Virus record (IMG/VR): IMGVR_UViG_2671181100_000003
Location: 1 to 11,754 of that record
DNA: 11,754 bases
From: a virus
Taxonomy: Duplodnaviria > Heunggongvirae > Uroviricota > Caudoviricetes
Reading direction: 5' to 3' (one strand)
The notes under the pieces were generated by a model. The model was not told where the DNA came from. It was given only the letters and a program-made list of their open reading frames with translations, and searched no databases. The translations under genes were made by a program, and so were the position numbers. Numbering within the stretch: the first letter of the stretch is position 1; each line of letters opens with the position of its first letter. Shown in pieces: positions 1 through 11,212 of the stretch.

Positions 1-179
1 ACACGCCCTTCGTTCTGCCAGAGCCTGAGCCATTTGAAAATAACATTATCATTGACGCCATTTTCACGTGCAATCTGTGCAACACAAGCTCCAGGTTGTG
101 ATGCCAGTTCCACCATACGAAGTTTGAATTCATTCGAATAGTTTTTACGAGGTTCTTTTCGCCAGTCCTGTAATTCCAT
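1..179 (-). CDS. IS-type transposase OrfA-like HTH protein, N-terminal fragment (frame runs off the left window edge)
   Basis: Minus-strand ATG at 179-177 opens a frame that continues to position 1. Translation MELQDWRKEPRKNYSNEFKLRMVELASQPGACVAQIARENGVNDNVIFKWLRLWQNEGRV shows the OrfA-type helix-turn-helix pattern of IS3-family (IS2-like) or IS66-family transposases (EFK..V.....PG..V..IAR..GV......W.....EG). Absent from the ORF track because it is truncated by the window edge. A possible element terminus (minus-strand TGACCGCCG, plus 244-252) lies ~70 bp upstream of the ATG. Confidence 0.4.
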   Translation of the reverse strand, partial: MELQDWRKEPRKNYSNEFKLRMVELASQPGACVAQIARENGVNDNVIFKWLRLWQNEGR

Positions 180-193
180 ACTTAGATGTCCGT

Positions 194-430
194 CTATATC
201 AGATGGGCGTCTAAGTTACCAATTCTCGTCTGATGGCTACATACGGCGGTCAGTTTACGCTTACGTTCAGTTGACACTGGTATTACTTTGTTTTCCTGTG
301 CTGCACATTTAGCTTCAAGCGCATCGAATTTACGCACCAGGTATTCAGCATCTGTTTCATTTACTTTCAGATCTCGCGGTACACATCTCCCACGAAGAAA
401 CCCTTCCATTTCGAAAACATTCATGCGCAT
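194..430 (-). CDS. Small hypothetical protein (76-78 aa) downstream of yfdR-like gene; 3' end possibly altered by the adjacent IS-like element
   Basis: ORF-track frame. Its start overlaps the yfdR-like stop (ATGA at 421-424), suggesting translational coupling with the likely start at 424. No recognisable motif. If the IS-like element ends near 252, the last ~19 codons would be IS-derived. Confidence 0.35.
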   Translation of the reverse strand: MRMNVFEMEGFLRGRCVPRDLKVNETDAEYLVRKFDALEAKCAAQENKVIPVSTERKRKLTAVCSHQTRIGNLDAHLI

Positions 431-957
431 TTGCGTAACTCCGATAACTCGTTAAAGCGTTCCATAAACATCCCGTAGGCATGGCCCGGTGCCAGTGGAA
501 TCACGTTGAACATCTCTGTTGCCGGGATACCTTCCAGTACAGGCCAGAAAGAGCCATCATCAAGCCCGAGATCGCGGCGTTCGGTTGCCAGCATGATGAG
601 ATCGGCATATTTCACGGGCGTACTCATAACTGGGGGTAACCCGTATTTCTCACGGATTACGGCGTCTATTTTTTCTTCCATTTGTTTATAGTCAGGAAGA
701 AGGCGTTTCAGTGGTGCGGGAATGTCCTGGCAATACGCTTCTGTTGCATCATGCATTAACGCTTCAAAAGCAAATTCCTGCGGCACCAGCTGGCTGCAAA
801 GAACCGCATGTTGGGCGACGCTGTAGAAGTGCGAAAGATGACCGGCAAAGCGACAGATATTTGAAAGGGAAACCGCGATATCGTTAATATCGATGTCGTC
901 TTTATTTATCCTGTCATAATAAAAATGCTTCCCGGAAAAAGTTTTAATAAATGACAT
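421..957 (-). CDS. yfdR: HD-domain metal-dependent phosphohydrolase (YfdR-like, putative 5'-deoxynucleotidase)
   Basis: ORF-track frame 421..984 trimmed to the ATG at 957 (MSFIKTF...), which has GGAG ~6 nt upstream, giving 178 aa. HD signature residues are present (AQHAV and LMHDATEAY). Length and sequence match my recollection of the CPS-53 prophage protein YfdR. Confidence 0.75.
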   Translation of the reverse strand: MSFIKTFSGKHFYYDRINKDDIDINDIAVSLSNICRFAGHLSHFYSVAQHAVLCSQLVPQEFAFEALMHDATEAYCQDIPAPLKRLLPDYKQMEEKIDAVIREKYGLPPVMSTPVKYADLIMLATERRDLGLDDGSFWPVLEGIPATEMFNVIPLAPGHAYGMFMERFNELSELRKCA

Positions 958-1052
958 TTTGTTCTCCACGTATATGCGCTGCACCGCGCTGAATTCTGGT
1001 AAAAAGAATCCCTCACCATCCGGCGATTATTGAGTAAATTACGTTTCCATAA

Positions 1053-1070
1053 ATGCCCCCGCAGGGACAT
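1053..1070 (-). terminator. Weak hairpin between yfdQ-like and yfdR-like genes (possible attenuator or partial terminator)
   Basis: Imperfect inverted repeat ATGCCCC/GGGACAT with a 4-nt loop, followed on the minus strand by UUUAUGG. Not a canonical U-tract. Confidence 0.2.
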
Positions 1071-1084
1071 TTGCAGTAATGAAA

Positions 1085-1909
1085 TCAGGCGGTGAAAGTG
1101 CCAATAAAGGTTTCTACTTTGCTGTCCTTGAATTTCTCAACAAGCAGATCACGAAATTCGTTAGCCATTTCTTCCTGCACCGCCTCCAGCTGAATAATGC
1201 GCAGAACCAGTACAGGACGATCGCCAGTGATAATACTGAGGCGTAATTTAAACGGACGTTCTTTCAGACCTTCAAACGGAACGCATTTAAATTCAAATGC
1301 CACTGGCATAATGTCTTTGGTTTTCGCTTCGACAGACTCCATCAGAGAGCGTTTGCCGCTGAAGTCATTGTCTTCAAAATCAGCGGTCTGGTTTGCTTCA
1401 ATCGTGATTTTACGGACAGCCGCAGCCGCTTTTGTTGCCTGAATAGCGTCACCATTAGCATCAAAGCCCACAAGGTAGTCGGCCCAGTCTTCAATCCATT
1501 CTGCTAGTGACTTCTGGGAGTTACGCTCGCCGTTAACAGACAACAGAGCAGAGAACGGTGCTGTCTTTTTCAGTTTGAGTGTGGCGGTGTTATCTGCGTG
1601 ACCTGGTTCATCAATAGTACCTAGGTTAAGCACACTGACGGCACGCATATTATCAGCATCGATAAAGCAGCGGGTGCCTTCATCTGCAAGATCTTTAGAA
1701 TAACGGGTAAAATCATCGATGCTGGCAGTGGAAAGCGCACCACGGAAACGGAAGCGATTTAAATTAAATTTTTCCAGATCATGAATGCGGAAATTCTCAG
1801 GCAATGCCACAGCATCGGCACCAATCTTACTGATAATTTCATTAACACCCTGAGCAGAAATAAGGGCATGGATTTGATTAATTGCGGTTGCGTCTAAGTT
1901 CTGAGACAT
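1085..1909 (-). CDS. yfdQ: DUF2303-family phage early protein (YfdQ-like), function unknown
   Basis: 274-aa ORF with GAGGA 5 nt upstream of the ATG. Length and sequence ([21 protein letters not shown]...) match my recollection of YfdQ from prophage CPS-53. Confidence 0.75.
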
Positions 1910-1974
1910 AATAAGTCCTCACTATATAAAGATATTCAGTGATGAGATAAATAATCAGTTAATTAAAAACGATA

Positions 1975-2337
1975 TTAACGACCTGCTGCGCGGAGTTTTC
2001 CGTCAGGTTCACCGGCAAGAGTCAGCAACTGTCCCTGGTCTTCCTGCAGAATAGTCAGGCGACCACCGCGATTGACATACATCGGCGTTTCGGTGGTGTC
2101 TTCTTCGGAAATTTTCCCGCGGTTAGTCGGGCGAACATATGAGAGTTTGTGTTTGATTTTCACTCGGTTCTCATCAAACGGTTCGATTTCTAGGTTGAGC
2201 GAGACCTTACCTTTGGTTTTCGTGTTCATCACACCGGAAGCGACTTCACTGAGAACTGCGCCGATTTTGGTTTCAAATACGCCGCCGTCCAGCTCCCCGA
2301 TAAATGCCTGCACATCAGTACTGCGTTCGCTAGCCAT
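1975..2337 (-). CDS. yfdP: YfdP-like early protein (120 aa), function unknown
   Basis: ORF-track frame 1975..2655 trimmed to the internal ATG at 2337 (MASERSTDVQ...), which has GAGGAG ~7 nt upstream. The 106 upstream codons are P/G/R-rich read-through of GC-rich non-coding DNA. Confidence 0.65.
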   Translation of the reverse strand: MASERSTDVQAFIGELDGGVFETKIGAVLSEVASGVMNTKTKGKVSLNLEIEPFDENRVKIKHKLSYVRPTNRGKISEEDTTETPMYVNRGGRLTILQEDQGQLLTLAGEPDGKLRAAGR

Positions 2338-2385
2338 TTTGCTGCTCCTCATCATATCGACCCTGCAAGGTCGGTTAGTTTCTCC

Positions 2386-2666
2386 ACAAAACAGAGAAGA
2401 ACACCTGCGGTGACTGCCGCCCGGATGGATTGGGTTATGAGCCCGTCGTCCGGTGATGCTCTTCTCTGTTTTGTAAAAAGGACGGTACCAGCCGGAAGCA
2501 AGGGTACAAGCTGGTACCGCCAAGACTACACACAGCATAAAGTTGTGGTGCCGGGTGCCTCCCGGTGCCTGGCGAAGGTTGCACACCAGGCGGGTGGGTA
2601 TCCACAGAAGGTCGACTGTCAGCCTCAACCTTAACCCGCGTGCGCTGAGCCGCATTCACCACAACG
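2386..2666. other. GC-rich non-coding stretch with nested perfect inverted repeats (candidate structured leader RNA or regulatory element of the leftward early operon)
   Basis: Perfect inverted repeats: 15 bp (2386-2400 ACAAAACAGAGAAGA / 2460-2474), 10 bp (2483-2492 CGGTACCAGC / 2510-2519), 9 bp (2542-2550 GTTGTGGTG / 2657-2665), 7 bp (2575-2581 / 2627-2633), plus short GC hairpins at 2551-2565 and 2567-2591. ORFs open in several frames here encode P/G/R-rich, non-protein-like sequence. Confidence 0.3.
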
Positions 2667-2806
2667 CTAAGGATTCTCTCTGGTTGAAAATACTTAGCTG
2701 TTATGTGCCTGCTTTTAGCCACATCAGGCGAGGTGGACCTAGTTATTCCCCAACAACAAGGATTCGGTTAATCTGGATATCCCCAACAACAATAAGAGTA
2801 TTCAAT

Positions 2807-3322
2807 GTGATCGCTGAATTAACGGCAGCAATGACGGCTATTCGTGAAATCGCCCAGATTGCAAAACTAATGAACGAGGCAAAAACTCAAGCTGAAGTAA
2901 ATGCGGCTATTGGTGAGCTGAACTCAAAGCTTGCGTCTATTCAGCGCGAATGCGTGTCTCTCGTTGAACTGCTGGGCTCTTATCAAGAAATAAATGCTTC
3001 TCTCAAAGCTAAAATTGCAGAATTCGAAAACTTTGAGGCTCAGACGGAAGGCTATATCCTTAACCAACTTGAGTCGGGTACTTTTGTATACTCGAAGGAG
3101 GTAATCGTGAACGGTGACAGCATAACCATGCATCTTTGCCCAAAATGTTTTGGACAAAAGATAGTATCGATACTTCAACCATTCCCGGTTAGCGAAGATG
3201 AGCTTTTTCATAAAAGCAGGTGCCTCCACTGTGAAAATAAGTTTCTGATGAATAAAAATCCAGATTACGTATCGCCTCCATCCATTGAGGAGTTGGCCAG
3301 AAAACTTAACGGCAATCTGTAG
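2807..3322 (+). CDS. Coiled-coil protein with C-terminal CxxC...CxxC zinc-ribbon (accessory gene in the immunity region, function unknown)
   Basis: ORF-track frame 2543..3322 trimmed to GTG 2807 (AAGAG 8 nt upstream) or ATG 2831. The N-terminal ~80 aa are heptad-like and A/E/K/L-rich; the C-terminus carries CPKCF and CLHCENK ~24 aa apart. GC is ~42% against ~52-55% in the replication genes. Convergent with the repressor, own terminator downstream. Confidence 0.55.
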   Translation: MIAELTAAMTAIREIAQIAKLMNEAKTQAEVNAAIGELNSKLASIQRECVSLVELLGSYQEINASLKAKIAEFENFEAQTEGYILNQLESGTFVYSKEVIVNGDSITMHLCPKCFGQKIVSILQPFPVSEDELFHKSRCLHCENKFLMNKNPDYVSPPSIEELARKLNGNL

Positions 3323-3347
3323 ATTGCTACTGTTGTGGATATCCAGA

Positions 3348-3360
3348 TTGTTAAAGAGCG
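3348..3360 (-). promoter_or_regulatory. boxA-like element (minus-strand CGCTCTTTAACAA), candidate nut-type antitermination site
   Basis: Minus-strand 13-mer CGCTCTTTAACAA matches the boxA consensus (rrn boxA TGCTCTTTAACAA; lambda nut boxA CGCTCTTA...) as I recall it. It is flanked by hairpins at 3362-3378 and 3312-3327 and lies downstream of a candidate leftward promoter at 3468-3496. Confidence 0.35.
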
Positions 3361-3361
3361 A

Positions 3362-3384
3362 AGCGTCCTGTAGGGCGCTTTTTT
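3362..3384 (+). terminator. Rho-independent terminator of the coiled-coil/zinc-ribbon gene
   Basis: Stem AGCGTCC / GGGCGCT (7 bp, one G-U) with loop TGTA, followed by TTTTTT at 3379-3384, ~40 nt after the stop codon at 3320-3322. Confidence 0.5.
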
Positions 3385-3465
3385 GTTGCTAACGAATCAT
3401 CCTGGACTTCATATGCCCCAGGCGGCTACTTCGTGGGCGTCCTGCCTGTTCGTTATCTTTGATAT

Positions 3466-3553
3466 AAAATCTAACTTAACTTAGCTATTATGGCAAGAGA
3501 AAACACCAAACTTTTCTTAGTTCGGTGCCTTAGTTAGAGAAGAGAGGTCTTAG
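3466..3553 (-). promoter_or_regulatory. Candidate left operator/promoter (OL/PL-like): leftward promoter flanked by CTTAG half-sites
   Basis: On the minus strand: -35 TTGCCA (plus 3491-3496), 17-bp spacer, -10 TAGATT (plus 3468-3473). CTTAG occurs four times within 3480-3553 (3480, 3516, 3529, 3549), the same pentamer that forms the operators between the repressor and cro. Confidence 0.3.
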
Positions 3554-4176
3554 AGTTCGTATTGAACTCCTTTGACTACACCAATGATAAGGCAATTACC
3601 ATTGATAGGGATGTTGGGATACCGAGGATTTAATGGCACTAAAAACTTTTGAGGGCCATCGATGACTAATTTTTTTACTGTAGCTTCGTTTGTTCCATCA
3701 AGTCGAGCGATGACTATTTTTCCATGACGAGGTTCTGCATCTGGATCTACAATCACTGTTGCGCCTTCTGGTATTGTTGGGAGGCCATTAGGGTTAGTCA
3801 TGGAGTCACCTTTAACCTCTAATGCAAATGAGTTATCACCAACCTTTAATGATGTATCTACCCACTTGTCCACTTCACTAAACACTTCTGCTGCCCTGCA
3901 CTCAGTAAACTGCCCAGCCTGAACCCACGATATTACAGGAACTCTGCGCATGTTTGTGACGAGTTTGCCTTCAAACTCAGCACCATAAAGAATGTAATCT
4001 ATTGACGTATTGAAGAACTTCGCTAATTTCGAAAGTGCCTCCCCACCAGGGGTATTGATGTCTTTCTCCCAGTACCCCACAGCAACGTCGCTTACTCCAC
4101 AAAATTTACCCAATTCTTTCTGGGACGTTCTGGTAACTCTTCTCAGAGCTTTTATACGCTGACCAACCGTTTCCAT
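3550..4176 (-). CDS. Phage repressor, cI/LexA-type (N-terminal HTH + C-terminal S24 autopeptidase domain)
   Basis: 208 aa. N-terminal HTH (QKELGKFCGVSDVAVGYWEKD), candidate Ala-Gly cleavage site (VQAGQF), S24 catalytic motif GDSM and Lys in TVKKL. Divergent from a cro-like gene across an operator region. Confidence 0.9.
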   Translation of the reverse strand: METVGQRIKALRRVTRTSQKELGKFCGVSDVAVGYWEKDINTPGGEALSKLAKFFNTSIDYILYGAEFEGKLVTNMRRVPVISWVQAGQFTECRAAEVFSEVDKWVDTSLKVGDNSFALEVKGDSMTNPNGLPTIPEGATVIVDPDAEPRHGKIVIARLDGTNEATVKKLVIDGPQKFLVPLNPRYPNIPINGNCLIIGVVKGVQYEL

Positions 4177-4195: not shown

Positions 4196-4266
4196 TTGCT
4201 AAGTAATCTTAGTTTTTATTGACCAAAGATAGATTTGTAATTAGCATCTAACAAAACTTAGTTTGG
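4196..4266. promoter_or_regulatory. OR-like operator/promoter region between repressor and cro
   Basis: Inverted half-sites CTAAG-TAAT-CTTAG (4199-4212), perfect palindrome AAACTTAGTTT (4254-4264), CTTAGTTT repeated at 4208 and 4257. Rightward promoter candidate -35 TTGACC (4219-4224), 17-bp spacer, -10 TAGCAT (4242-4247), upstream of the cro ATG at 4274. Confidence 0.5.
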
Positions 4267-5398: not shown

Positions 5399-5418
5399 AG
5401 GTCGGTCATGAGCACTAA
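5239..5418 (+). CDS. Small hypothetical protein (59 aa) from a TTG start; alternatively the C-terminal half of a frameshifted gene starting at 5060
   Basis: Not in the ORF track (no ATG). AAGGAG at 5225-5230, 8 nt before TTG 5239. Translation [59 protein letters not shown] is compositionally protein-like. Stop at 5416-5418 overlaps the O-like start. Confidence 0.3.
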
Positions 5419-6364
5419 ATTAACCGGCTATGTATGGGATGGTTGCGCTGCATCAGGCATGAAATTATCCAGCGTGGCAATTATGGCCCGCCTGGCTGAT
5501 TTCAGTAATGACGAAGGTGTGTGCTGGCCATCAATTGAAACCATTGCCCGCCAGATTGGCGCGGGGATGAGTACCGTCAGAACGGCTATCGCACGGCTGG
5601 AAGCAGAAGGCTGGTTAACGCGTAGGGCGCGTCGCCAGGGTAACCGCAATGCGTCGAATGTTTATCAGCTTAACGTTGCGAAGCTTCAGGCAGCGGCATT
5701 TTCTCAACTGTCAGATTCTGACCCGTCAAAATCTGACGCATCAAAATCTGACGCATCAAAATCTGACCCGTCAAAATTTGATGCGTCGAAATCTGGCAAA
5801 AAAGCGGGTTTTCACCCGTCAGAATCTGGTGGGGATCCGTCAGTAAAATCAAAACATGATCCGTCAGATAAAAAAACTTCTCGTCCGGACGCTTCGCAAC
5901 CGGACACGCAGACGGCTGAACAGGATTTTTTAACTCGCCATCCTGATGCGGTTGTATTCAGCCCTAAAAAGCGCCAGTGGGGGACGCAGGATGATTTGAC
6001 CTGCGCACAGTGGCTCTGGAAAAAAATCATCGCCCTGTACGAGCATGCCGCCGAATGTGACGGCGAGGTGGTTCGTCCCAAAGAACCGAACTGGACAGCC
6101 TGGGCAAACGAAATTCGCCTGATGTGTGTGCAGGATGGTCGTACTCATAAACAAATCTGCGAGATGTACAGCCGCGTCAGTCGCGATCCGTTCTGGTGCC
6201 GTAACGTGCTCAGCCCGTCGAAGCTGCGGGAAAAATGGGATGAGCTTTCCCTGCGCTTATCGCCGTCCGTCAGCACGTACACCGAAAAACGCGAAGACCC
6301 GTACTTCAAAGCCAGTTACGACAACGTGGACTACAGCCAGATCCCGGCAGGATTCAGGGGGTGA
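5408..6364 (+). CDS. Replication initiator, lambda O-like (N-terminal HTH DNA-binding domain, repeat linker, C-terminal domain)
   Basis: 318 aa, GAGGT 5 nt upstream. N-terminal HTH (SSVAIMARLADFSNDEGVCWPSIETIARQIGAGMSTVRTAIARLEAEGWL) is typical of phage replication initiators. An internal tandem-repeat block encodes (S/P)KSDA pentapeptides, like the iteron-encoded linker of lambda O. Position after cro/CII. Confidence 0.7.
   Translation: MSTKLTGYVWDGCAASGMKLSSVAIMARLADFSNDEGVCWPSIETIARQIGAGMSTVRTAIARLEAEGWLTRRARRQGNRNASNVYQLNVAKLQAAAFSQLSDSDPSKSDASKSDASKSDPSKFDASKSGKKAGFHPSESGGDPSVKSKHDPSDKKTSRPDASQPDTQTAEQDFLTRHPDAVVFSPKKRQWGTQDDLTCAQWLWKKIIALYEHAAECDGEVVRPKEPNWTAWANEIRLMCVQDGRTHKQICEMYSRVSRDPFWCRNVLSPSKLREKWDELSLRLSPSVSTYTEKREDPYFKASYDNVDYSQIPAGFRG
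5711..5800. repeat. Six tandem 15-bp repeats inside the O-like gene: candidate replication-origin iterons
   Basis: Units TCAGATTCTGACCCG / TCAAAATCTGACGCA (x2) / TCAAAATCTGACCCG / TCAAAATTTGATGCG / TCGAAATCTGGCAAA. Each junction forms the dyad CGTCA-AAATC-TGACG. Degenerate copies and an A-rich stretch follow to ~5880. Confidence 0.5.
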
Positions 6365-6366
6365 TC

Positions 6367-6855
6367 ATGAGTCTTTTGAATGACGTTCAGAAATTCATTG
6401 AAGCCCATCCGGGGTGTACTTCCGGAGACATTGCGGATGCTTTTGCAGGTTACTCACGACAGCGCGTTCTGCAGTCAGCAAGCAAGTTACGTCAGAGTGG
6501 GCGTGTGGCTCACCGTTGTGAAGGGGATACACGCAGACATTTCCCGCGGCTGACTGAGATACCGCAGGAGCCGGAACCGCAACCAGTTCGTGAATCCAGA
6601 CCTGTGCGCAATTTCTATGTCGGCACTAACGATCCCCGGGTGATTTTGTGCCTGACCCGCCAGGCGGAAGAACTGGAGTCCAGGGGCTTATACCGTCGTG
6701 CTGCAACGGTGTGGATGGCGGCATTCCGTGAAAGCCACTCCCAGCAAGAGCGAAACAATTTTCTTGCGCGTCGTGAGCGGTGTTTACGGAAAAGCAGCAA
6801 GCGCGCTGTATCGGGTGAAGAGTGGTATCTGTCAGGGAATTACGTGGGGGCTTAA
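6367..6855 (+). CDS. Putative transcriptional regulator: N-terminal winged-helix-like region plus PerC-like C-terminal motif
   Basis: ORF-track frame 6361..6855 trimmed to ATG 6367 (GGGGG 5 nt upstream, overlapping the O-like stop). The C-terminal motif AEELESRGLYRRAATVWMAAF resembles the PerC/Pch activator signature as I recall it. The size (162-164 aa) matches my recollection of YfdN. Confidence 0.55.
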   Translation: MSLLNDVQKFIEAHPGCTSGDIADAFAGYSRQRVLQSASKLRQSGRVAHRCEGDTRRHFPRLTEIPQEPEPQPVRESRPVRNFYVGTNDPRVILCLTRQAEELESRGLYRRAATVWMAAFRESHSQQERNNFLARRERCLRKSSKRAVSGEEWYLSGNYVGA

Positions 6856-7181
6856 TGACGACGTTAACTCAATGCCAGCAGCAGGTGCTGGATATGCTGA
6901 TTTCTTATCAGAAAGAACGTGGCTTCCCGCCAACCAATCAGGAGGTGGCAACCATGCTGGGATACCGTTCAGTGAATGCAGCGGTGGAGCATCTTCGCGC
7001 ACTGGAGAAAAAAGGCGTCATCACGATAAAGCGTGGCGTGGCCCGGGGCATCACGCTTCATACCGCGGTGAAGGACGACGACAGCGAGGCGGCCGGGATT
7101 ATCCGCGCACTGCTTGCTGGTGAGGAAAACGCCAGGCTGCGTGCAGCCCACTGGTTACATGAGAGGGGCCTGAAAGTATGA
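6855..7181 (+). CDS. LexA DNA-binding-domain-like protein lacking the S24 peptidase domain
   Basis: ORF-track frame trimmed to ATG 6855 (TAATG overlap with the upstream stop; GGGGG upstream). LTQCQQQVLDMLISYQKERGFPPTNQEVATMLGYRSVNAAVEHLRALEKKGVITIKRGVARGITL aligns by eye with the LexA N-terminus ([65 protein letters not shown]). The 108-aa product stops before any protease domain. Confidence 0.75.
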   Translation: MTTLTQCQQQVLDMLISYQKERGFPPTNQEVATMLGYRSVNAAVEHLRALEKKGVITIKRGVARGITLHTAVKDDDSEAAGIIRALLAGEENARLRAAHWLHERGLKV

Positions 7182-7567
7182 AGCTGATCCTGCCTTTTCC
7201 GCCCAGCGTGAACACGCACTGGCGACACCCCAACAAAGGGGCGTTTGCTGGTAAGAGCCTGATAAGCGCGGCGGGGCGAAAATTCCAGAGCGCGGCGTGC
7301 GCAGCAATAGTTGAGCAGTTACGTCGTCTGCCAAAACCAACGTCGGCACCTGCTTCAGTGGAGATCGTGTTGTTTCCTCCGGATAACCGGATCCGCGATC
7401 TGGACAACTATAACAAGGCGCTGTTTGACGCCCTGACCCACGCGGGTGTGTGGGAAGACGACAGTCAGGTGAAAAGAATGCTGGTGGAGTGGGGACCGGT
7501 TATCCCGGAAGGGAAGGTCGAGATCACTATCAGTAAGTACGAGAAACCGGCGGGTGCAGCCGCCTGA
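7178..7567 (+). CDS. rusA: RusA-family Holliday junction resolvase
   Basis: 129 aa with ATGA overlap to the upstream gene. Motifs LPFPPSVN, DLDNYNKALFDALT and GVWEDDSQV match the RusA family. Confidence 0.85.
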   Translation: MKLILPFPPSVNTHWRHPNKGAFAGKSLISAAGRKFQSAACAAIVEQLRRLPKPTSAPASVEIVLFPPDNRIRDLDNYNKALFDALTHAGVWEDDSQVKRMLVEWGPVIPEGKVEITISKYEKPAGAAA

Positions 7568-7586
7568 TTAAGAGGAGAAACGAAGT

Positions 7587-8384
7587 ATGAATAATCTGAT
7601 GGTTATTGATGGTATTGAAGTTCGTCGTGATGCTTATGGGCGTTACAGCCTGAACGATCTGCACAGGGCTGCCGGTTCTCTGGATAAACATAAGCCTGCA
7701 TTCTGGCTCCGCAATGAGCAAACTGAACGTTTAATAAGCGAGTTGCAGATTTGCAACTCGGTCAATATAGAGCCAGTTAACGTTATTCGTGGAGGAAATA
7801 ACCAGGGGACGTATGTCTGCAAAGAACTGGTGTATGCCTATGCAATGTGGATCAGCCCGTCATTCCATCTGAAGGTGATCCGTACTTTCGATATGGTAAC
7901 CAGCACACCGGAAAAATTATCCGGGCAGGCTGCTGACAAGATGCAGGCTGGCGTGATCCTGCTGGACTTTATGCGCCGGGAGTTAAACCTGTCTAACTCT
8001 TCAGTGCTTGGTGCCTGTCAGAAACTCCAGGAGGCTGTTGGCTTACCGAATCTGGCACCGCGCTATGCCATTGATGCTCCTGCTGACGCGCCTGATGGCT
8101 CAAGCCGCCCCACGCTGTCACTGAGTGCACTGCTGAAGCAGTATGGTATCCGCCTGACAGCTAATCAGGCATATCACCAGATGGTGAAGCTGGGGATCGT
8201 CGAGCAGCGCGAACGATACAGCCGTACCGCGATTAACAACATCAAAAAATTCTGGTCACTGACAGCGAAAGGCTGCATGTTCGGCAAGAACATCACCAGT
8301 CCCGCAAATCCGCGCGAGACGCAGCCGCATTTCTTCGAATCCCGATTCCCTGAGCTGTTAAAGCTGCTCGATACCGTTCATTGA
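7587..8384 (+). CDS. KilA-N domain protein (N-terminal KilA-N DNA-binding domain, uncharacterised C-terminal domain)
   Basis: 265 aa with strong RBS AAGAGGAGAAA. N-terminal YSLNDLHRAAG...KPAFWLRNEQTERLI...IRGGNNQGTYVCKELVYAYAMWISPSFHLKVIRTFD fits the KilA-N fold. Confidence 0.8.
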   Translation: MNNLMVIDGIEVRRDAYGRYSLNDLHRAAGSLDKHKPAFWLRNEQTERLISELQICNSVNIEPVNVIRGGNNQGTYVCKELVYAYAMWISPSFHLKVIRTFDMVTSTPEKLSGQAADKMQAGVILLDFMRRELNLSNSSVLGACQKLQEAVGLPNLAPRYAIDAPADAPDGSSRPTLSLSALLKQYGIRLTANQAYHQMVKLGIVEQRERYSRTAINNIKKFWSLTAKGCMFGKNITSPANPRETQPHFFESRFPELLKLLDTVH

Positions 8385-8385
8385 G

Positions 8386-9381
8386 GTGACCGTGAGAGCG
8401 CTACTGACCCCTGAAATTGCCCCGCGTATGGGGATCGTATTGTTCAGGCCAGGTTCAGAGCTGATGCCCCTGTTTATGCAGGGCCGTGTTCTGCTGGAGC
8501 CTGAGCCGGAGCGTTATTCATCTTTCGCCAGTGGTGCCGTTCCTGCGGCATCACAACCGCTGGCGGATGATCCTGCCGTTCTGGCCGTGTTCCGTAATGA
8601 GGCAGTGATTCGTCGTGCTGGTGGGGTGGAATGTCTTGAAAGCTGGTTACTTCGTGAAAAAGGCTGCCAGTGGCCTCATTCCGACTGGCACAGCGAGAAC
8701 ATGACCACAATGCGACACGCGCCGGGCGCAATCCGTCTGTGCTGGCACTGCGATAACCAGCTTCGCGATCAGTTCACGGAACGGCTGGAATCAATGGCAA
8801 CGGATAACTGTGCCCGCTGGGTGTTGTCTGTTGTGCGTCGGGATCTCGGTTTTGATGATAGTCACGTTGTGACAATGCCGGAACTGTGCTGGTGGCTGAT
8901 TCGTAATGATCTGGCAGATGCCTTACCGGAAAGTGCAGCCCGTAAGGCACTGAGATTACCGAAGCCTGTTGTGCCGTCTGTCACCCGGGAAAGTGACCTT
9001 GTGCCTTCGGTTCCTGCCACCAGCATCATCCAGGATAAGGCGAAAAAGGTGCTGGCGCTGAAAGTGGATCCGGAGTCGCCGGAGTCTTTTATGTTACGCC
9101 CAAAACGCCGCCGCTGGGTTAATGAAAAGTACACGCGCTGGGTTAAGACACAGCCGTGTGCATGTTGTGGAAAGCCTGCTGATGATCCCCACCACCTGAT
9201 AGGTCACGGTCAGGGTGGAATGGGTACAAAAGCGCATGACCTCTTTGTGTTGCCTTTGTGCAGAAAGCATCACGACGAGCTGCATGCGGATACCGTGGCA
9301 TTTGAAGAGAAGTATGGCTCCCAACTGGAGCTGATATTTCGTTTTATCGATCGCGCGCTGGCGATTGGTGTGTTGGCCTGA
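8386..9381 (+). CDS. DUF968-like nin-region protein with C-terminal Cys/His-rich (HNH-like) motif
   Basis: 331 aa from GTG 8386 (start uncertain; internal ATG at 8428). C-terminal CACCGKPADDPHHLIGHG...LCRKHHDELH suggests a zinc-binding nuclease-like motif. Family assignment from memory of YdfU-like prophage proteins. Confidence 0.55.
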   Translation: MTVRALLTPEIAPRMGIVLFRPGSELMPLFMQGRVLLEPEPERYSSFASGAVPAASQPLADDPAVLAVFRNEAVIRRAGGVECLESWLLREKGCQWPHSDWHSENMTTMRHAPGAIRLCWHCDNQLRDQFTERLESMATDNCARWVLSVVRRDLGFDDSHVVTMPELCWWLIRNDLADALPESAARKALRLPKPVVPSVTRESDLVPSVPATSIIQDKAKKVLALKVDPESPESFMLRPKRRRWVNEKYTRWVKTQPCACCGKPADDPHHLIGHGQGGMGTKAHDLFVLPLCRKHHDELHADTVAFEEKYGSQLELIFRFIDRALAIGVLA

Positions 9382-9398
9382 TTTGGTGGAGAAAGTTG

Positions 9399-9764
9399 AT
9401 GCGTGATATTCAGATGGTTCTGGAGCGTTGGGGAGCATGGGCGGCGAGTGATAGTTCTGGAGTAGACTATTCGCCTATAGCTGCTGGGTTTAAGGGGCTT
9501 CTTCCCTACACAAGCAAAACACGTCAGGCTTGTTCAGATAGTGATGCATTAATTATTGAAGGTTGTCTTGCTCGTCTAAAGCAAAAAAAGCCAGATGAGC
9601 ACTCGCTGCTTGTGGCACATTATTTATACAGAATATCCAAGCGTAAGATTGCAAAGGTGCGTGGAAAGGATGAAAAATTGGTACGCATAGAAATACAACT
9701 AGCCGAAGGATTTATTGATGGTTGCCTTTCAATGTTGGATGTTAACCTTGAAATGGACGCTTAG
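9399..9764 (+). CDS. Late-gene antiterminator Q (small Q family)
   Basis: ORF-track frame 9396..9764 trimmed to ATG 9399 (GGAG 7 nt upstream). The N-terminal motif DIQMVLERWGAWAA...DYSPIAAGFKGLLP matches my recollection of the small antitermination-Q family. Last gene of the rightward early operon. Confidence 0.7.
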   Translation: MRDIQMVLERWGAWAASDSSGVDYSPIAAGFKGLLPYTSKTRQACSDSDALIIEGCLARLKQKKPDEHSLLVAHYLYRISKRKIAKVRGKDEKLVRIEIQLAEGFIDGCLSMLDVNLEMDA

Positions 9765-9770
9765 GGTTGC

Positions 9771-9800
9771 ACAGGTTGGCCCCATATGAGGCCAACCTGT
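9771..9800. other. Perfect 11-bp inverted repeat (hairpin) between convergent Q and membrane-protein genes
   Basis: ACAGGTTGGCC (9771-9781) / GGCCAACCTGT (9790-9800) with an 8-nt loop. It starts 7 nt after the Q stop and abuts the membrane-protein stop codon (9800-9802). No adjacent U-tract on either strand, so not a canonical intrinsic terminator. Confidence 0.4.
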
Positions 9801-10261
9801 CACAAGTGGGGGAAGATTTTTCGTAACACTAACCAACACCTTCCGAAGGTATATAGCGAAATTATAAGGGAGGATAAGCCTAACAGTATGAATAGGAAAT
9901 CAATAGGTTTGCCCGCAACAATAACATCATCTGGTAGAAACATCGCTATCAATGGAAATATACATGCGACGATGAGAGTTAACCCTGTTGAAAGTAATCG
10001 ATTTACCAGAGTTGGTAACACGTTGTTTTGCTTAAGGGCATTAATTGCTCCTTCCTTATCGCTGTTTGCACTACTAAATATAGATATTGCAGCCAGAACA
10101 AAACCAAACAGGATGCCTGATATAGTCGAGAGCACCCCCGCTGTTGTGAGTACGTCAGCATGCTTCATCGGTTTAAACAGTTTTGTCGCTGCATAGGTCA
10201 ACAGAATCCAGAGGACGCATTTCCAGAGAAAAGTGGCTAATTCTCTCATTGTGTCCTCCAT
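9800..10261 (-). CDS. Small integral membrane protein, four predicted TM helices (second gene of the two-gene cassette)
   Basis: 153-aa ORF; the likely start is the second ATG at 10249 (GGAGG 5 nt upstream), giving 149 aa. Four hydrophobic segments (~residues 10-28, 37-63, 85-109, 120-140) with short loops and no soluble domain. Separated by ~20 nt from the upstream 313-aa gene. Confidence 0.6.
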   Translation of the reverse strand: MEDTMRELATFLWKCVLWILLTYAATKLFKPMKHADVLTTAGVLSTISGILFGFVLAAISIFSSANSDKEGAINALKQNNVLPTLVNRLLSTGLTLIVACIFPLIAMFLPDDVIVAGKPIDFLFILLGLSSLIISLYTFGRCWLVLRKIFPHL

Positions 10262-10270
10262 GCTTGGTTA

Positions 10271-11212
10271 TTAGTCTCTGCTAGCGAGCTCATACTGTGC
10301 AAGATAGTTCGCGTTATCAATTTTAGCAGATATCATCGCCGTTCTGATATCAGAATCGGATGGATAACCGCTTTTGACAATGATTGTCTTTGTACTGACC
10401 AATACTTGGTCAAGTAGACTTTTGGGCGTTCTATTGGATGGCTCTGTTACATCAATTTTTTTAATTTTTAGACCTCCAGAACCTTTTGGAAAAAGTTCAA
10501 GTAGTTCCTTAATAGCATCGGTGACAGAAGTTTTTAGATAGTTAAAACCTTGTTTTTTCGGGCGAATCCGACCTCGCATATTTAATCTTAGATGCGACCC
10601 GCCCATACCAACAACCATGTCAATAATTTCATTAGCTAAAGGGTTTTTAATCTTATAATTAGCTTTGTTAAAGTTTCTTGGAGCAGCAACTATAAGATCG
10701 AAACTACGTAGGATATTTCCGTCCTCAAGCAGTTCCTTCATGCTCTCTTGTTTCCAAATGGCTTCAAAAGTGACGCTTTTTAAATCAGTTTTGTTATACA
10801 AAATGAATGCCAGATCATTTACTTTGGGCCCTATATGGTTGAGGGTCATAGCTAATAAATCCGTTTCGTAGTAATAGATAAAATATGTTCTTTCAACTAC
10901 AGAATCTTTATCATTTAAAGGAATTGTTCTCTCACTACCTGTAGCATCCTCGATGAACGGTAGTAGGCATTCCCTTCTCCACGATACGTAACCAAAGTAA
11001 CATTGCAGTGTGGTATCTTTTTGAAGAATAACTAACTTTAACCCTCGATTTGGGGTGTCTGTTGTGTAAGTTATTGGAAAAGTTACAGTATCTGCTGTGG
11101 TCATTTGCTCAAAGGCTAGTTTTGCAGCAGATGTGCCATCTTTTTTGCTTCCATTACCAGTGAAAAAACCAACTCTCACTCGCCTAGTTTTATTCTTATT
11201 TTCTGTACTCAT
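10271..11212 (-). CDS. Uncharacterised 313-aa soluble protein (first gene of the two-gene cassette)
   Basis: Long ORF with no recognisable catalytic motif by eye (no Walker A, no clear nucleotidyltransferase GS...DxD). K/N/T-rich, GC ~35-42%. Opposite in orientation to all flanking phage genes. Confidence 0.65.
   Translation of the reverse strand: MSTENKNKTRRVRVGFFTGNGSKKDGTSAAKLAFEQMTTADTVTFPITYTTDTPNRGLKLVILQKDTTLQCYFGYVSWRRECLLPFIEDATGSERTIPLNDKDSVVERTYFIYYYETDLLAMTLNHIGPKVNDLAFILYNKTDLKSVTFEAIWKQESMKELLEDGNILRSFDLIVAAPRNFNKANYKIKNPLANEIIDMVVGMGGSHLRLNMRGRIRPKKQGFNYLKTSVTDAIKELLELFPKGSGGLKIKKIDVTEPSNRTPKSLLDQVLVSTKTIIVKSGYPSDSDIRTAMISAKIDNANYLAQYELASRD

Follow-up and report, generated by a model that had tools for sequence, protein, structure and literature searches.

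What do the genes of the early-left arm of a lambdoid prophage do when they are neither immunity nor replication genes, and do neighboring ones work together? The question is raised by three adjacent minus-strand genes in a stretch of phage DNA of 11,754 nucleotides (the window). The first-pass annotation had read them as one tightly spaced early operon, in which an HD-domain phosphohydrolase that could remodel nucleotide pools or degrade a nucleotide signal is accompanied by two uncharacterized partner proteins.

Identity and Layout of the yfdP, yfdQ and yfdR Genes

The proposed sizes and identities of the three genes were borne out by ORF analysis and by RefSeq. The genes and their downstream neighbors are as follows:

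1975–2337, minus strand: yfdP, 120 aa; ATG at 2337, with GAGGAG 7 nt 5′ of the start
1085–1909, minus strand: yfdQ, 274 aa; an acidic DUF2303 protein
421–957, minus strand: yfdR, 178 aa; HD-domain phosphohydrolase resembling 5′-deoxynucleotidases
194–430, minus strand: truncated yfdS, 78 aa (K-12: 120 aa), missing the DUF551 portion
1–264, minus strand: end of the insertion sequence (IS) interrupting yfdS; contains the first part of a transposase-type ORF, which encodes an HTH_Tnp_1 domain

The mechanical ORF of yfdR reaches a GTG at position 984, while the ATG at 957 agrees with RefSeq and with the K-12 annotation. Window positions 265–3600 are 99.8% identical to RefSeq E. coli genomes that annotate the same genes as yfdP, yfdQ and yfdR. 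Since homologues are conserved across genera, sequence comparison identifies these as genuine genes rather than chance ORFs, and we regard the three names as practically certain to be correct.

The segment belongs to a lambdoid prophage of the CPS-53/SfV/ST64B type, where it makes up the accessory portion of the early-left arm. Its gene order is shared by yfdP-yfdQ-yfdR-yfdS-yfdT of the K-12 prophage CPS-53 (KpLE1) and by orf32-orf28 of SfV, with 98–99% protein identity; compared to CPS-53, YfdP differs at 2 residues, YfdQ at 2 (272/274 are the same) and YfdR at 4 (174/178). The yfdPQR cluster is already known and has been partly studied in K-12, and its occurrence here is in itself ordinary, the genes being named, frequent in E. 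coli genomes and partly characterized.

The window differs from K-12 in two respects. It keeps the immunity region (cI, cro) and a structured leader of ~340 nt, whereas K-12 lost both by a deletion that ends ~25 nt 5′ of the yfdP start. The window yfdS, unlike that of K-12, is interrupted by an IS: the alignment of its product to K-12 YfdS breaks down past ~residue 55, and the DUF551 match of the K-12 protein covers residues 50–117. The translation of the IS ORF, MELQDWRKEPRKNYSNEFKL..., matches HTH_Tnp_1 with E 3e-12. RefSeq prophage matches end at window position 265, and the query matches 13,571 places in 4,501 genomes, plasmids included.

yfdP and yfdQ Are an Obligate Pair

The spacing of the genes is less uniform than had been described. 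The term "tightly spaced" is only partly apt: yfdP and yfdQ are separated by 65 nt and yfdQ and yfdR by 127 nt, while the 3′ end of yfdR overlaps yfdS by 10 nt. A first IMG/VR scan returned identical E. coli loci only, and the collection was requeried using Xanthomonas and Vibrio homologues. In all 33 phage loci compared, which span Escherichia to Vibrio, Pseudomonas and Xanthomonas, YfdQ is immediately preceded on its own strand by a YfdP homologue, the intergenic distance ranging from −4 to 65 nt. Four of the 33 also have YfdR. Among phage-collection records, YfdP (180) and YfdQ (184) share a taxon profile. That of YfdR (333 records) is unlike theirs and includes, e.g., Bacillus, Caulobacter and Rhizobium phages, and phages carrying YfdR mostly lack yfdP-yfdQ. 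A K-12 regulon study likewise gives the operon as "yfdPQ".

Because YfdP and YfdQ are always paired, YfdR is mostly found elsewhere, and yfdR overlaps yfdS but lies 127 nt from yfdQ, the locus very probably holds two modules side by side (yfdP-yfdQ, and yfdR overlapped with yfdS) rather than one three-gene system. The idea that YfdP and YfdQ are partners of the HD protein was therefore not upheld. yfdP-yfdQ is an obligate pair in many Gammaproteobacteria phages, usually amid replication and recombination genes, and what this analysis adds is that it stands by itself as a two-gene module widespread among phages. Across 17 non-redundant loci, the universal genes are yfdP and yfdQ alone, followed in frequency by genes for exonuclease (7), Erf (5), DnaQ-like protein (4) and SSB (3).

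YfdP matches phrog_204 (E 1e-49), and a precomputed match to the YfdP family PF27127 is present in every YfdP homologue among the matches listed. The protein is small, combines helices with a sheet and ends in a conserved tail (~residues 78–105); a search of the PDB for a YfdP homologue found none. The DUF2303 call for the 274-aa protein was confirmed, as YfdQ matches Pfam PF10065 with 309.7 bits (E 2e-92) over profile positions 2–269 of 269, and also matches phrog_210 (E 3e-120). YfdQ was further matched to PDB entry 9o7m, a CP2-like "YfdQ Protein" (E 1e-44, or E 1e-58 with a profile), in which 36 chains, all of one sequence, are contained in a single entry; a literature search for a paper on this entry found none. 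The AF2 model of YfdQ has a pLDDT of 76, the pI is ~5 across the family, and a fold search with YfdQ retrieved no full-length relative. Weak Pfam matches at E ≤ 5, collected for 14 diverse members per family, revealed no consistent second family, and there was no Pfam, PDB-sequence or fold match to phage annealing and recombination proteins (RecT/Redβ, Erf, Rad52, Sak4 etc.). YfdP and YfdQ have no recognizable fold. The description of both as uncharacterized holds only roughly for YfdQ, which has genetic phenotypes and a homologue with a deposited structure.

Given its gene neighborhood, YfdP-YfdQ could be thought of as an unrecognized replication or recombination accessory, e.g., a mediator acting with SSB, an exonuclease or an annealing protein, the effect on oriC described below being incidental. 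Besides the neighbor counts given above, this would agree with SSB genes lying directly 3′ of the pair in two loci, with a replication initiator close by in CP2, with a weak sensitivity of a yfdQ deletion to MMS and H2O2 (PMC4776307), and with the activation of another resident phage by YfdQ overproduction. However, the pair is found together with complete Rec modules; in 314 lambdoid phages surveyed, the genes occurred both with and without such modules, and the survey considered it unlikely that they encode hidden recombination proteins. YfdQ is moreover acidic and displays no nucleic-acid-binding or nuclease fold, and residues that are invariant across the family are mostly structural. We consider an accessory role unlikely.

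Alternatively, these genes may be lysogenic cargo that aids host tolerance to H2O2, acid and MMS through slower initiation rather than serving lytic growth. Stress phenotypes have been reported for CPS-53 and for deletions of yfdQ and yfdS (PMC4776307), and K-12 yfdPQ is expressed under control of the host factor SrsR. That control is probably secondary, since the K-12 deletion joins the phage origin iterons to a point ~25 nt from the yfdP start. In many sequenced phages, the pair is conserved in early lytic-type operons beside replication genes, which indicates a phage function. A benefit to the lysogen is accordingly scarcely probable as the main role.

YfdR Is a Distinct HD-Domain Protein

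The HD-phosphohydrolase call for the 178-aa protein was confirmed by matches to phrog_318, "deoxyribonucleoside 5′ monophosphate phosphatase" (E 3e-110), and to PDB 2gz4, Atu1052 (E 3e-14). The E. coli 5′-deoxynucleotidase YfbR (PDB 2paq) and Atu1052 have the HD fold and share with YfdR the R, H, HD, E, D and D positions. The H...HD...D metal-binding motif is present in YfdR, with H50, H69-D70 and D119 aligned with YfbR and Atu1052 residues, and R36, E73 and D78 are invariant in the alignment to YfbR. The YfbR positions aligned with R36, H50, H69-D70, E73, D78 and D119 are presumably metal-binding or catalytic; Zimmerman 2008 is said to have named YfbR R18, E72 and D77 as catalytic or substrate-binding residues besides the metal ligands. 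Because these positions are kept, YfdR looks catalytically competent in the alignment and is not an obviously dead enzyme.

YfdR is only ~23% identical to YfbR and remains below the thresholds of YfbR-type families (25.0 vs. 25.9 bits for PF12917; 20.5 vs. 122 bits for the NCBIfam equivalog NF003009). These scores place it in an HD subfamily (phrog_318) that is related to, but distinct from, that of YfbR. K-12 YfdR has been described as a low-affinity HD 5′-deoxynucleotidase (PMC4776307), and in the account of Zimmerman 2008 cited there, its nucleotide affinities are far below those of YfbR.

One alternative, raised in the first-pass annotation, is nucleotide-pool remodeling. YfdR would then serve chiefly as an early enzyme that removes phosphate from dNMPs (or CMP/dCMP) and so alters the precursor pools, with YfdP and YfdQ as unrelated neighbors. 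The intact metal and catalytic positions, the PHROG and RefSeq family name, the reported CMP phosphatase activity of K-12 YfdR and the common presence of YfdR-type genes in large lytic phages with other nucleotide-metabolism genes all fit this. On the other hand, deletion of yfdR in an engineered strain did not raise CMP yield, dNMP dephosphorylation would waste DNA precursors of a replicating phage, and YfdR falls short of the YfbR family scores given above. Pool remodeling as the main function is therefore doubtful.

The same annotation had suggested that degradation of a nucleotide signal might serve counter-defense. YfdR would then act on an immune signal (e.g., cyclic oligonucleotides or cADPR isomers), or oligomeric YfdQ would be a sponge or decoy. 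Early expression would suit such a role, as would the acidity of YfdQ and the occurrence of the pair in phages of several genera, which is seen for many anti-defense genes; the 36 chains of the CP2-like homologue may hint at a large assembly. Yet YfdP, YfdQ and YfdR matched no PADLOC family at E ≤ 0.01 (a library of defense, not anti-defense, proteins), and the closest relatives of YfdR are phosphatases that use 5′-monophosphates. A literature search on yfd gene names found no anti-defense report, and the pair lies amid recombination, SSB and exonuclease genes, not in typical anti-defense islands. We consider counter-defense very unlikely.

A Possible Role of YfdR and YfdQ in Takeover of Host Replication

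K-12 YfdR, unlike YfbR, is reported to have an added DnaA-binding activity: it binds DnaA domain I via Phe46, in competition with DiaA and DnaB, and the binding of the purified proteins depends on this residue (PMC4776307). In multicopy, yfdQ and yfdR together with either yfdS or yfdT are the minimal set that suppresses over-initiation at oriC, with yfdP being dispensable (PMC4776307), and oriC replication in vitro is inhibited by extracts containing YfdQRST (PMC4776307). The authors proposed a role in the ancestral phage like that of lambda P. They also reported that the initiation phenotype requires multicopy, that initiation is unaffected when yfdQRST is deleted, and that in pull-downs YfdQ, YfdS and YfdT showed no high-affinity binding to YfdR or DnaA; an over-expression artefact was conceded as possible (PMC4776307).

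By analogy with the K-12 proteins, which are 98–99% identical, YfdR made upon induction would bind the Phe46 surface of host DnaA domain I and compete there with DiaA and DnaB. Together with YfdQ and with YfdS or YfdT, it would suppress new rounds of initiation at oriC. The outcome would be a takeover of host replication analogous to DnaA binding by lambda P, and the weak dNMP phosphatase activity of YfdR would be secondary. Takeover would suit a phage that has an O-type initiator only and no helicase loader. In the window, an O-type HTH initiator with iterons is found 3′ of cro and cII, and no gene for a helicase or helicase loader is present; phages of this type have been described (PMC12315714).

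Lambda P and B. subtilis SirA have the same proposed outcome as YfdR, i.e., a small DnaA binder prevents host initiation, and SirA binding uses the residue equivalent to Phe46 (PMC4776307). Neither is related to YfdR in sequence or fold. Lambda P targets DnaA domain III and doubles as a helicase loader, whereas the YfdR effect is moderate and co-factor-dependent.

We consider DnaA-binding takeover the most likely of the mechanisms, with a probability somewhat short of an even chance. Besides the reservations reported for K-12, what speaks against it is that the conserved unit is YfdP-YfdQ, while YfdP was not needed in the only functional assay; being conserved with YfdQ but dispensable, it suggests that the oriC assay may miss the real function of the module. 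In addition, of the YfdQRST inhibitor set (Noguchi & Katayama 2016), the window has intact yfdQ and yfdR, but yfdS is truncated by the IS and yfdT lies beyond the window end. The truncation may thus leave the set incomplete in this copy.

A Structured RNA Separates yfdP from the Candidate Early Promoter

The three genes had been placed behind a leftward early promoter region. They do not adjoin it directly: the pL-like promoter is ~1.1 kb 5′ of yfdP, with a plus-strand gene and a structured RNA in between. The features of this interval are the following:

2356–2375, minus strand: small hairpin, after the 2386–2474 hairpin and before the yfdP RBS
2386–2474, minus strand: second long hairpin with 25-bp arms, between the RNA terminator and yfdP; an inverted repeat, present in the MFE fold
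2472–2695, minus strand: STnc100-like structured RNA in the yfdP leader; full-length match to Rfam RF02076
2807–3322, plus strand: phrog_1244 gene, 171 aa; ORF and RefSeq CDS (phrog_1244, E 2e-59)
3360–3381, plus strand: strong terminator
3468–3520, minus strand: candidate leftward early promoter TTGCCA-17-TAGATT, from a promoter scan, with two operator-like sites
3550–4176, minus strand: cI-type repressor with Pfam HTH_3 and Peptidase_S24, "LexA family protein" in RefSeq; immunity context

The CTAAG-N4-CTTAG-type sites at 3471–3484 and 3507–3520 resemble the cI-cro sites at 4199–4212 and 4248–4261, although these are consensus-level matches only. No other pL-like promoter has repressor-operator-like sites. 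Between the candidate promoter and yfdP, there are the opposite-strand gene, which is bracketed by a 19-nt inverted repeat (2770–2788/3331–3349), and a structured RNA of ~340 nt that includes a terminator-like hairpin; altogether, two or three terminator-like hairpins separate the promoter from yfdP. No N homologue or N-like antiterminator was found among the window genes. Because of the intervening hairpins, the antisense gene and the lack of such an antiterminator, transcription of yfdP-yfdQ-yfdR from pL is uncertain, which also counts against the takeover mechanism.

The match of the leader to RF02076 is full-length and scores 43.4 bits (E 3e-8), which is under the gathering score of 47; orthologous leaders score 35–41 bits. 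The element shares the core CACCGGGAGGCACCCGGCACCA with the STnc100/PasD prophage sRNAs and ends in a terminator-like hairpin (2481–2520) followed by a U-run (2475–2479). Its folding z-score is −6.3. The same STnc100-like element is found at the same position in SfV, ST64B, 118970_sal3 and phiES15. Compared by blastn, the leaders of the window and ST64B show an overall identity of 78% and contain long blocks without a single change, while the flanking proteins are merely 57–61% identical. Covariation is weak (4 of 46 pairs doubly changed in five sequences), the core being almost invariant. The 2386–2474 hairpin is also kept in ST64B, with compensatory G-C to A-U changes visible in the alignment. 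Described copies of STnc100 lie in late regions, e.g., 75 nt 3′ of stx2, whereas the window copy is in an early-left leader; among IMG/VR elements with the STnc100 core, yfdP follows in only 10 of 128.

Several other readings of the leader were rejected. RefSeq annotates a "frameshifted hypothetical protein" at 2352–2662, but conservation, the RF02076 match and the fold favor a structured RNA over a coding sequence. The 2386–2474 hairpin resembles, by blastn, Klebsiella phage sites annotated as tRNA; a tRNA reading was ruled out, as ARAGORN predicted zero tRNA in the window and the Klebsiella match sits just 3′ of tRNA genes. A relationship to HK022 put was also dropped, the HK022 immunity region giving no STnc100-type match, and a DicF match at 2480–2534 (19 bits, E 0.08) was taken as noise.

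N-less phages of this type have been predicted to need an N-independent antitermination or attenuation element, and the STnc100-like leader could be such an element.

Relation to Other Phages and Implications

The yfdP-yfdQ-yfdR trio is also present in ST64B (sb37-sb36-sb35), LLS (gp39-gp38-gp37) and phiNP, where it lies right behind a long leader 3′ of the repressor. These phages lack N, exo, bet and gam and have an O-only replication module. Their proteins are merely 57–69% identical to those of the window, and the genes 3′ of yfdR differ. The cluster is hosted by a class of lambdoid phages that lack N, a Rec module and a helicase loader (PMC12315714).

It could be that YfdP and YfdQ make up a phage system of two proteins that is complete in itself and has folds unseen elsewhere, in which YfdQ may form a large acidic assembly with YfdP as its small partner. 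Its target in lytic growth would be the host replication machinery (DnaA/DnaB) or another host target. In lambdoid phages that have an O-type initiator only, YfdR and YfdQ might go beyond blocking oriC and steer DnaA or DnaB toward the phage origin. We consider this reading, together with that of the leader as an antitermination or attenuation element, rather improbable.

The strict linkage of yfdP and yfdQ from Escherichia to Xanthomonas, together with a genetic link to the control of host initiation, presents phage biologists with a tractable question. Early transcription and replication of such phages could plausibly be approached through the conserved structured leader and through YfdR with its binding to DnaA.

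Identity and State of the Cluster

The window corresponds to the immunity and early region of an E. coli lambdoid prophage. The first-pass annotation read its left part as a leftward early operon encoding an HD-domain phosphohydrolase and two further proteins. Since gene positions, RefSeq annotation, likeness to K-12 proteins and family assignments all agree, the three minus-strand genes, which were already known, had been correctly identified. Features of this part are as follows:

1-264, end of an insertion sequence that occurs thousands of times among E. coli genomes, with a transposase-type ORF (HTH_Tnp_1)
194-430, interrupted yfdS, whose 78-aa product is cut before the DUF551 domain
421-957, minus strand, yfdR, 178 aa
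1085-1909, minus strand, yfdQ, 274 aa
1975-2337, minus strand, yfdP, 120 aa

Exactly yfdP, yfdQ and yfdR are annotated in RefSeq genomes that are 99.8% identical across positions 265-3600, in the order tRNA-Thr, int, xis-like gene, yfdT, yfdS, yfdR, yfdQ, yfdP, “frameshifted hypothetical protein”, plus-strand gene, cI, cro. The products differ from those of the E. coli K-12 prophage CPS-53 by two (YfdP), two (YfdQ) and four (YfdR) residues. YfdQ matches DUF2303 across its full length (E 2e-92), YfdP belongs to phrog_204 and PF27127, and YfdR belongs to phrog_318, “deoxyribonucleoside 5′ monophosphate phosphatase” (E 3e-110), its nearest solved relative being Atu1052 (PDB 2gz4, E 3e-14). The insertion separates the operon from yfdT (beyond the window), xis and int, which follow yfdS in intact copies of the prophage.

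Early-Left Control Region

Two CTAAG-N4-CTTAG-type sites are present in the cI-cro spacer (4199-4261), and two like sites flank a minus-strand σ70-like promoter just left of cI (3468-3520), about 1.1 kb from yfdP. The latter arrangement is a candidate OL/pL; the sites and the promoter match at consensus level, and the number of motifs, taken by itself, does not exceed chance expectation. No N homologue was found in the window. Features between this promoter and yfdP are as follows:

2386-2474, minus strand, hairpin with 25-bp arms followed by a small hairpin, 3′ of the STnc100-like RNA
2472-2695, STnc100-like RNA
2770-2788 and 3331-3349, 19-nt inverted repeat, 95% complementary, bracketing the 171-aa gene
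2807-3322, plus strand, 171-aa gene (phrog_1244) with its own terminator

The phrog_1244 protein combines a coiled-coil N-terminal part with CxxC...CxxC motifs. Its gene is in antisense orientation and separates the pL-like promoter from the early-left genes, and so could be a moron or else a cassette that inverts or moves.

The pL-like promoter and yfdP are also separated by a highly structured RNA of about 340 nt (minus strand, within 2338-2700; fold z-score -6.3). By blastn, this leader matches Salmonella phage ST64B at the DNA level, with 78% overall identity and long fully conserved blocks, while the flanking proteins of the two phages are only 57-61% identical. The RefSeq frameshifted protein pseudogene at 2352-2662 is thus probably wrong, as a conserved, strongly structured leader occupies this position. 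The STnc100 match covers the whole Rfam model (43.4 bits, E 3e-8, just under the gathering score of 47), and the 3′ end of the RNA carries a terminator-like hairpin and a U-run. With no N homologue present, transcription from pL may continue past the leader hairpins, or yfdP may be served by a promoter of its own. Prophage sRNAs of the STnc100 family have been described before, mostly from late regions. The element occupies the same early-left leader position in SfV, ST64B, 118970_sal3 and phiES15 (in phiES15, upstream of kil-gam); these four phages lack an N antiterminator. At least 120 viral contigs carry the core motif; of 128 elements, only 10 have yfdP next. The leader is missing from K-12 CPS-53, where a deletion reaches to within about 25 nt of the yfdP start on its upstream side.

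The inner part of the second leader hairpin (2418-2468) shares about 82% identity with a stretch of Klebsiella phage GZ7 (2501-2551 of that locus); in several Klebsiella phages this stretch comes directly after the tRNA genes located downstream of Q. Given this resemblance, the same small RNA motif may recur in late-operon leaders.

Early-Right Arm

The phage type to which this one belongs, which lacks N and a Rec module, encodes an O-type initiator with neither helicase nor loader, and is rich in Chi sites, has been described (PMC12315714). Features of the right part are as follows:

5408-9764, early-right arm: O-type HTH initiator, then, in order, PerC-like, LexA-like, RusA, KilA-N, DUF968/HNH and Q genes
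5711-5781, five copies of TCAGATTTTGA with 15-nt spacing, inside the initiator gene
4710, 7480, 8617, 8888, 11393 and 11713 (plus strand) and 9017 (minus strand), Chi sites (GCTGGTGG)
9800-11212, minus strand, two genes of low GC (0.37-0.41) just downstream of Q

No helicase or helicase loader gene was found in the arm. Seven Chi sites fall within 11.7 kb, six sharing a strand, against about 0.2 per strand expected for a random 8-mer; this count fits the Chi-rich lambdoid class without Rec module (PMC12315714). The five TCAGATTTTGA copies are origin iterons and are read in the initiator protein as SKSDASKSD repeats. Since the “SrsR boxes” of the K-12 yfdO/yfdP spacer (PMC9181523) are the same sequences, the K-12 regulatory site is a remnant of the phage origin. 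The genes downstream of Q encode products of 313 aa and 153 aa (the latter hydrophobic by eye), neither with a Pfam or PADLOC match, at a position typical of lysogenic-conversion or defence cargo.

YfdR and Host Replication

In an alignment with E. coli YfbR, YfdR keeps R36, H50, H69-D70, E73, D78 and D119, which we take to match the metal-binding and catalytic positions of YfbR; the predicted enzyme is therefore not obviously inactive. By score, it is no YfbR equivalog, falling below the Pfam YfbR-like cut-off (25.0 versus 25.9 bits) and far under that of NCBIfam NF003009 (20.5 versus 122). Reportedly, CMP yield in an engineered strain was no higher after yfdR was deleted.

[quoted passage not shown] In the same work, purified YfdR bound DnaA in a manner requiring domain I Phe46, and oriC replication in vitro was inhibited by extracts containing YfdQRST; gene deletion had no effect, and the authors conceded possible over-expression artefacts and suggested that, in the ancestral phage, the genes played a part like that of lambda P (PMC4776307). 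Elsewhere, yfdQ deletion conferred weak MMS and H2O2 sensitivity, and YfdQ over-production activated another resident phage (bioRxiv 413146).

In the phage, YfdR would bind domain I of host DnaA, aided by YfdQ and YfdS or YfdT, and the outcome would be takeover of host replication. This is the best-supported role, extended to the phage only from over-expression of K-12 proteins. A nucleotide-signal or counter-defence role, proposed earlier for this operon, found no support. YfdS or YfdT is required for the activity described in the literature; since YfdS is cut here and yfdT lies outside the window, the functional set in this copy may be incomplete.

YfdP and YfdQ Form a Separate Module

When the three proteins were used as queries against phage genomes and IMG/VR contigs, YfdP (180 phage records) and YfdQ (184) were retrieved from nearly the same records, with the same taxon breakdown. 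YfdR was found in 333 phage records with a quite unlike taxon profile that includes phages of Bacillus, Caulobacter, Rhizobium and Stenotrophomonas and several very large phages. All 33 loci examined, drawn from phages of Escherichia, Shigella, Salmonella, Vibrio, Pseudomonas and Xanthomonas and from metagenomic viral contigs, have a YfdP homologue immediately 5′ of YfdQ and in the same orientation (gap -4 to 65 nt); only four of these loci contain YfdR. Among 17 non-redundant loci, only YfdP and YfdQ are universal, the commonest other neighbours being exonuclease (7), Erf (5), DnaQ-like (4), SSB (3) and YfdR (3). In the window, yfdR and yfdS overlap by 10 nt, a gap of 127 nt separates yfdQ from yfdR, and a K-12 regulon study lists the operon as “yfdPQ”. 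On these grounds, we read the cluster as two modules side by side, [yfdP-yfdQ] and [yfdR-yfdS...]. A survey published in 2025 and covering 314 lambdoid phages found yfbR-type, yfdQ and yfdP genes common in early-left operons, both with and without Rec modules, and judged their products unlikely to be hidden recombinases (PMC12315714).

The AF2 model of YfdP is a single long helix packed on three long strands, with a C-terminal tail that is conserved, yet modelled with low confidence; that of YfdQ is an alpha/beta protein (pLDDT 76). For neither model was a convincing relative found in fold libraries with entries to April 2026 (9o7m not included), and neither protein gave a secondary Pfam signal or a PADLOC match. 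The YfdP family comprises 522 representative clusters among 1.84 billion proteins, the matches listed all being small (at most 190 aa). YfdQ is acidic family-wide (pI about 5, net charge -7 to -18), and the positions that never vary in the family are chiefly aromatic or structural, together with E46, R56, an “EDW” motif and R166, a pattern that speaks against a classical enzyme. A single DUF2303 structure has been solved, PDB 9o7m (“YfdQ Protein”), of a Xanthomonas phage CP2-like orthologue; it is nearly identical to CP2 ORF37 (3068-3892 of the CP2 locus) over all 274 residues. A literature search found no paper on it. Its 36 chains may reflect a large YfdQ assembly, as judged from chain count only. 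Of the new points, the most useful is the status of yfdP-yfdQ as an independent, strictly paired and widespread module without a recognisable fold.
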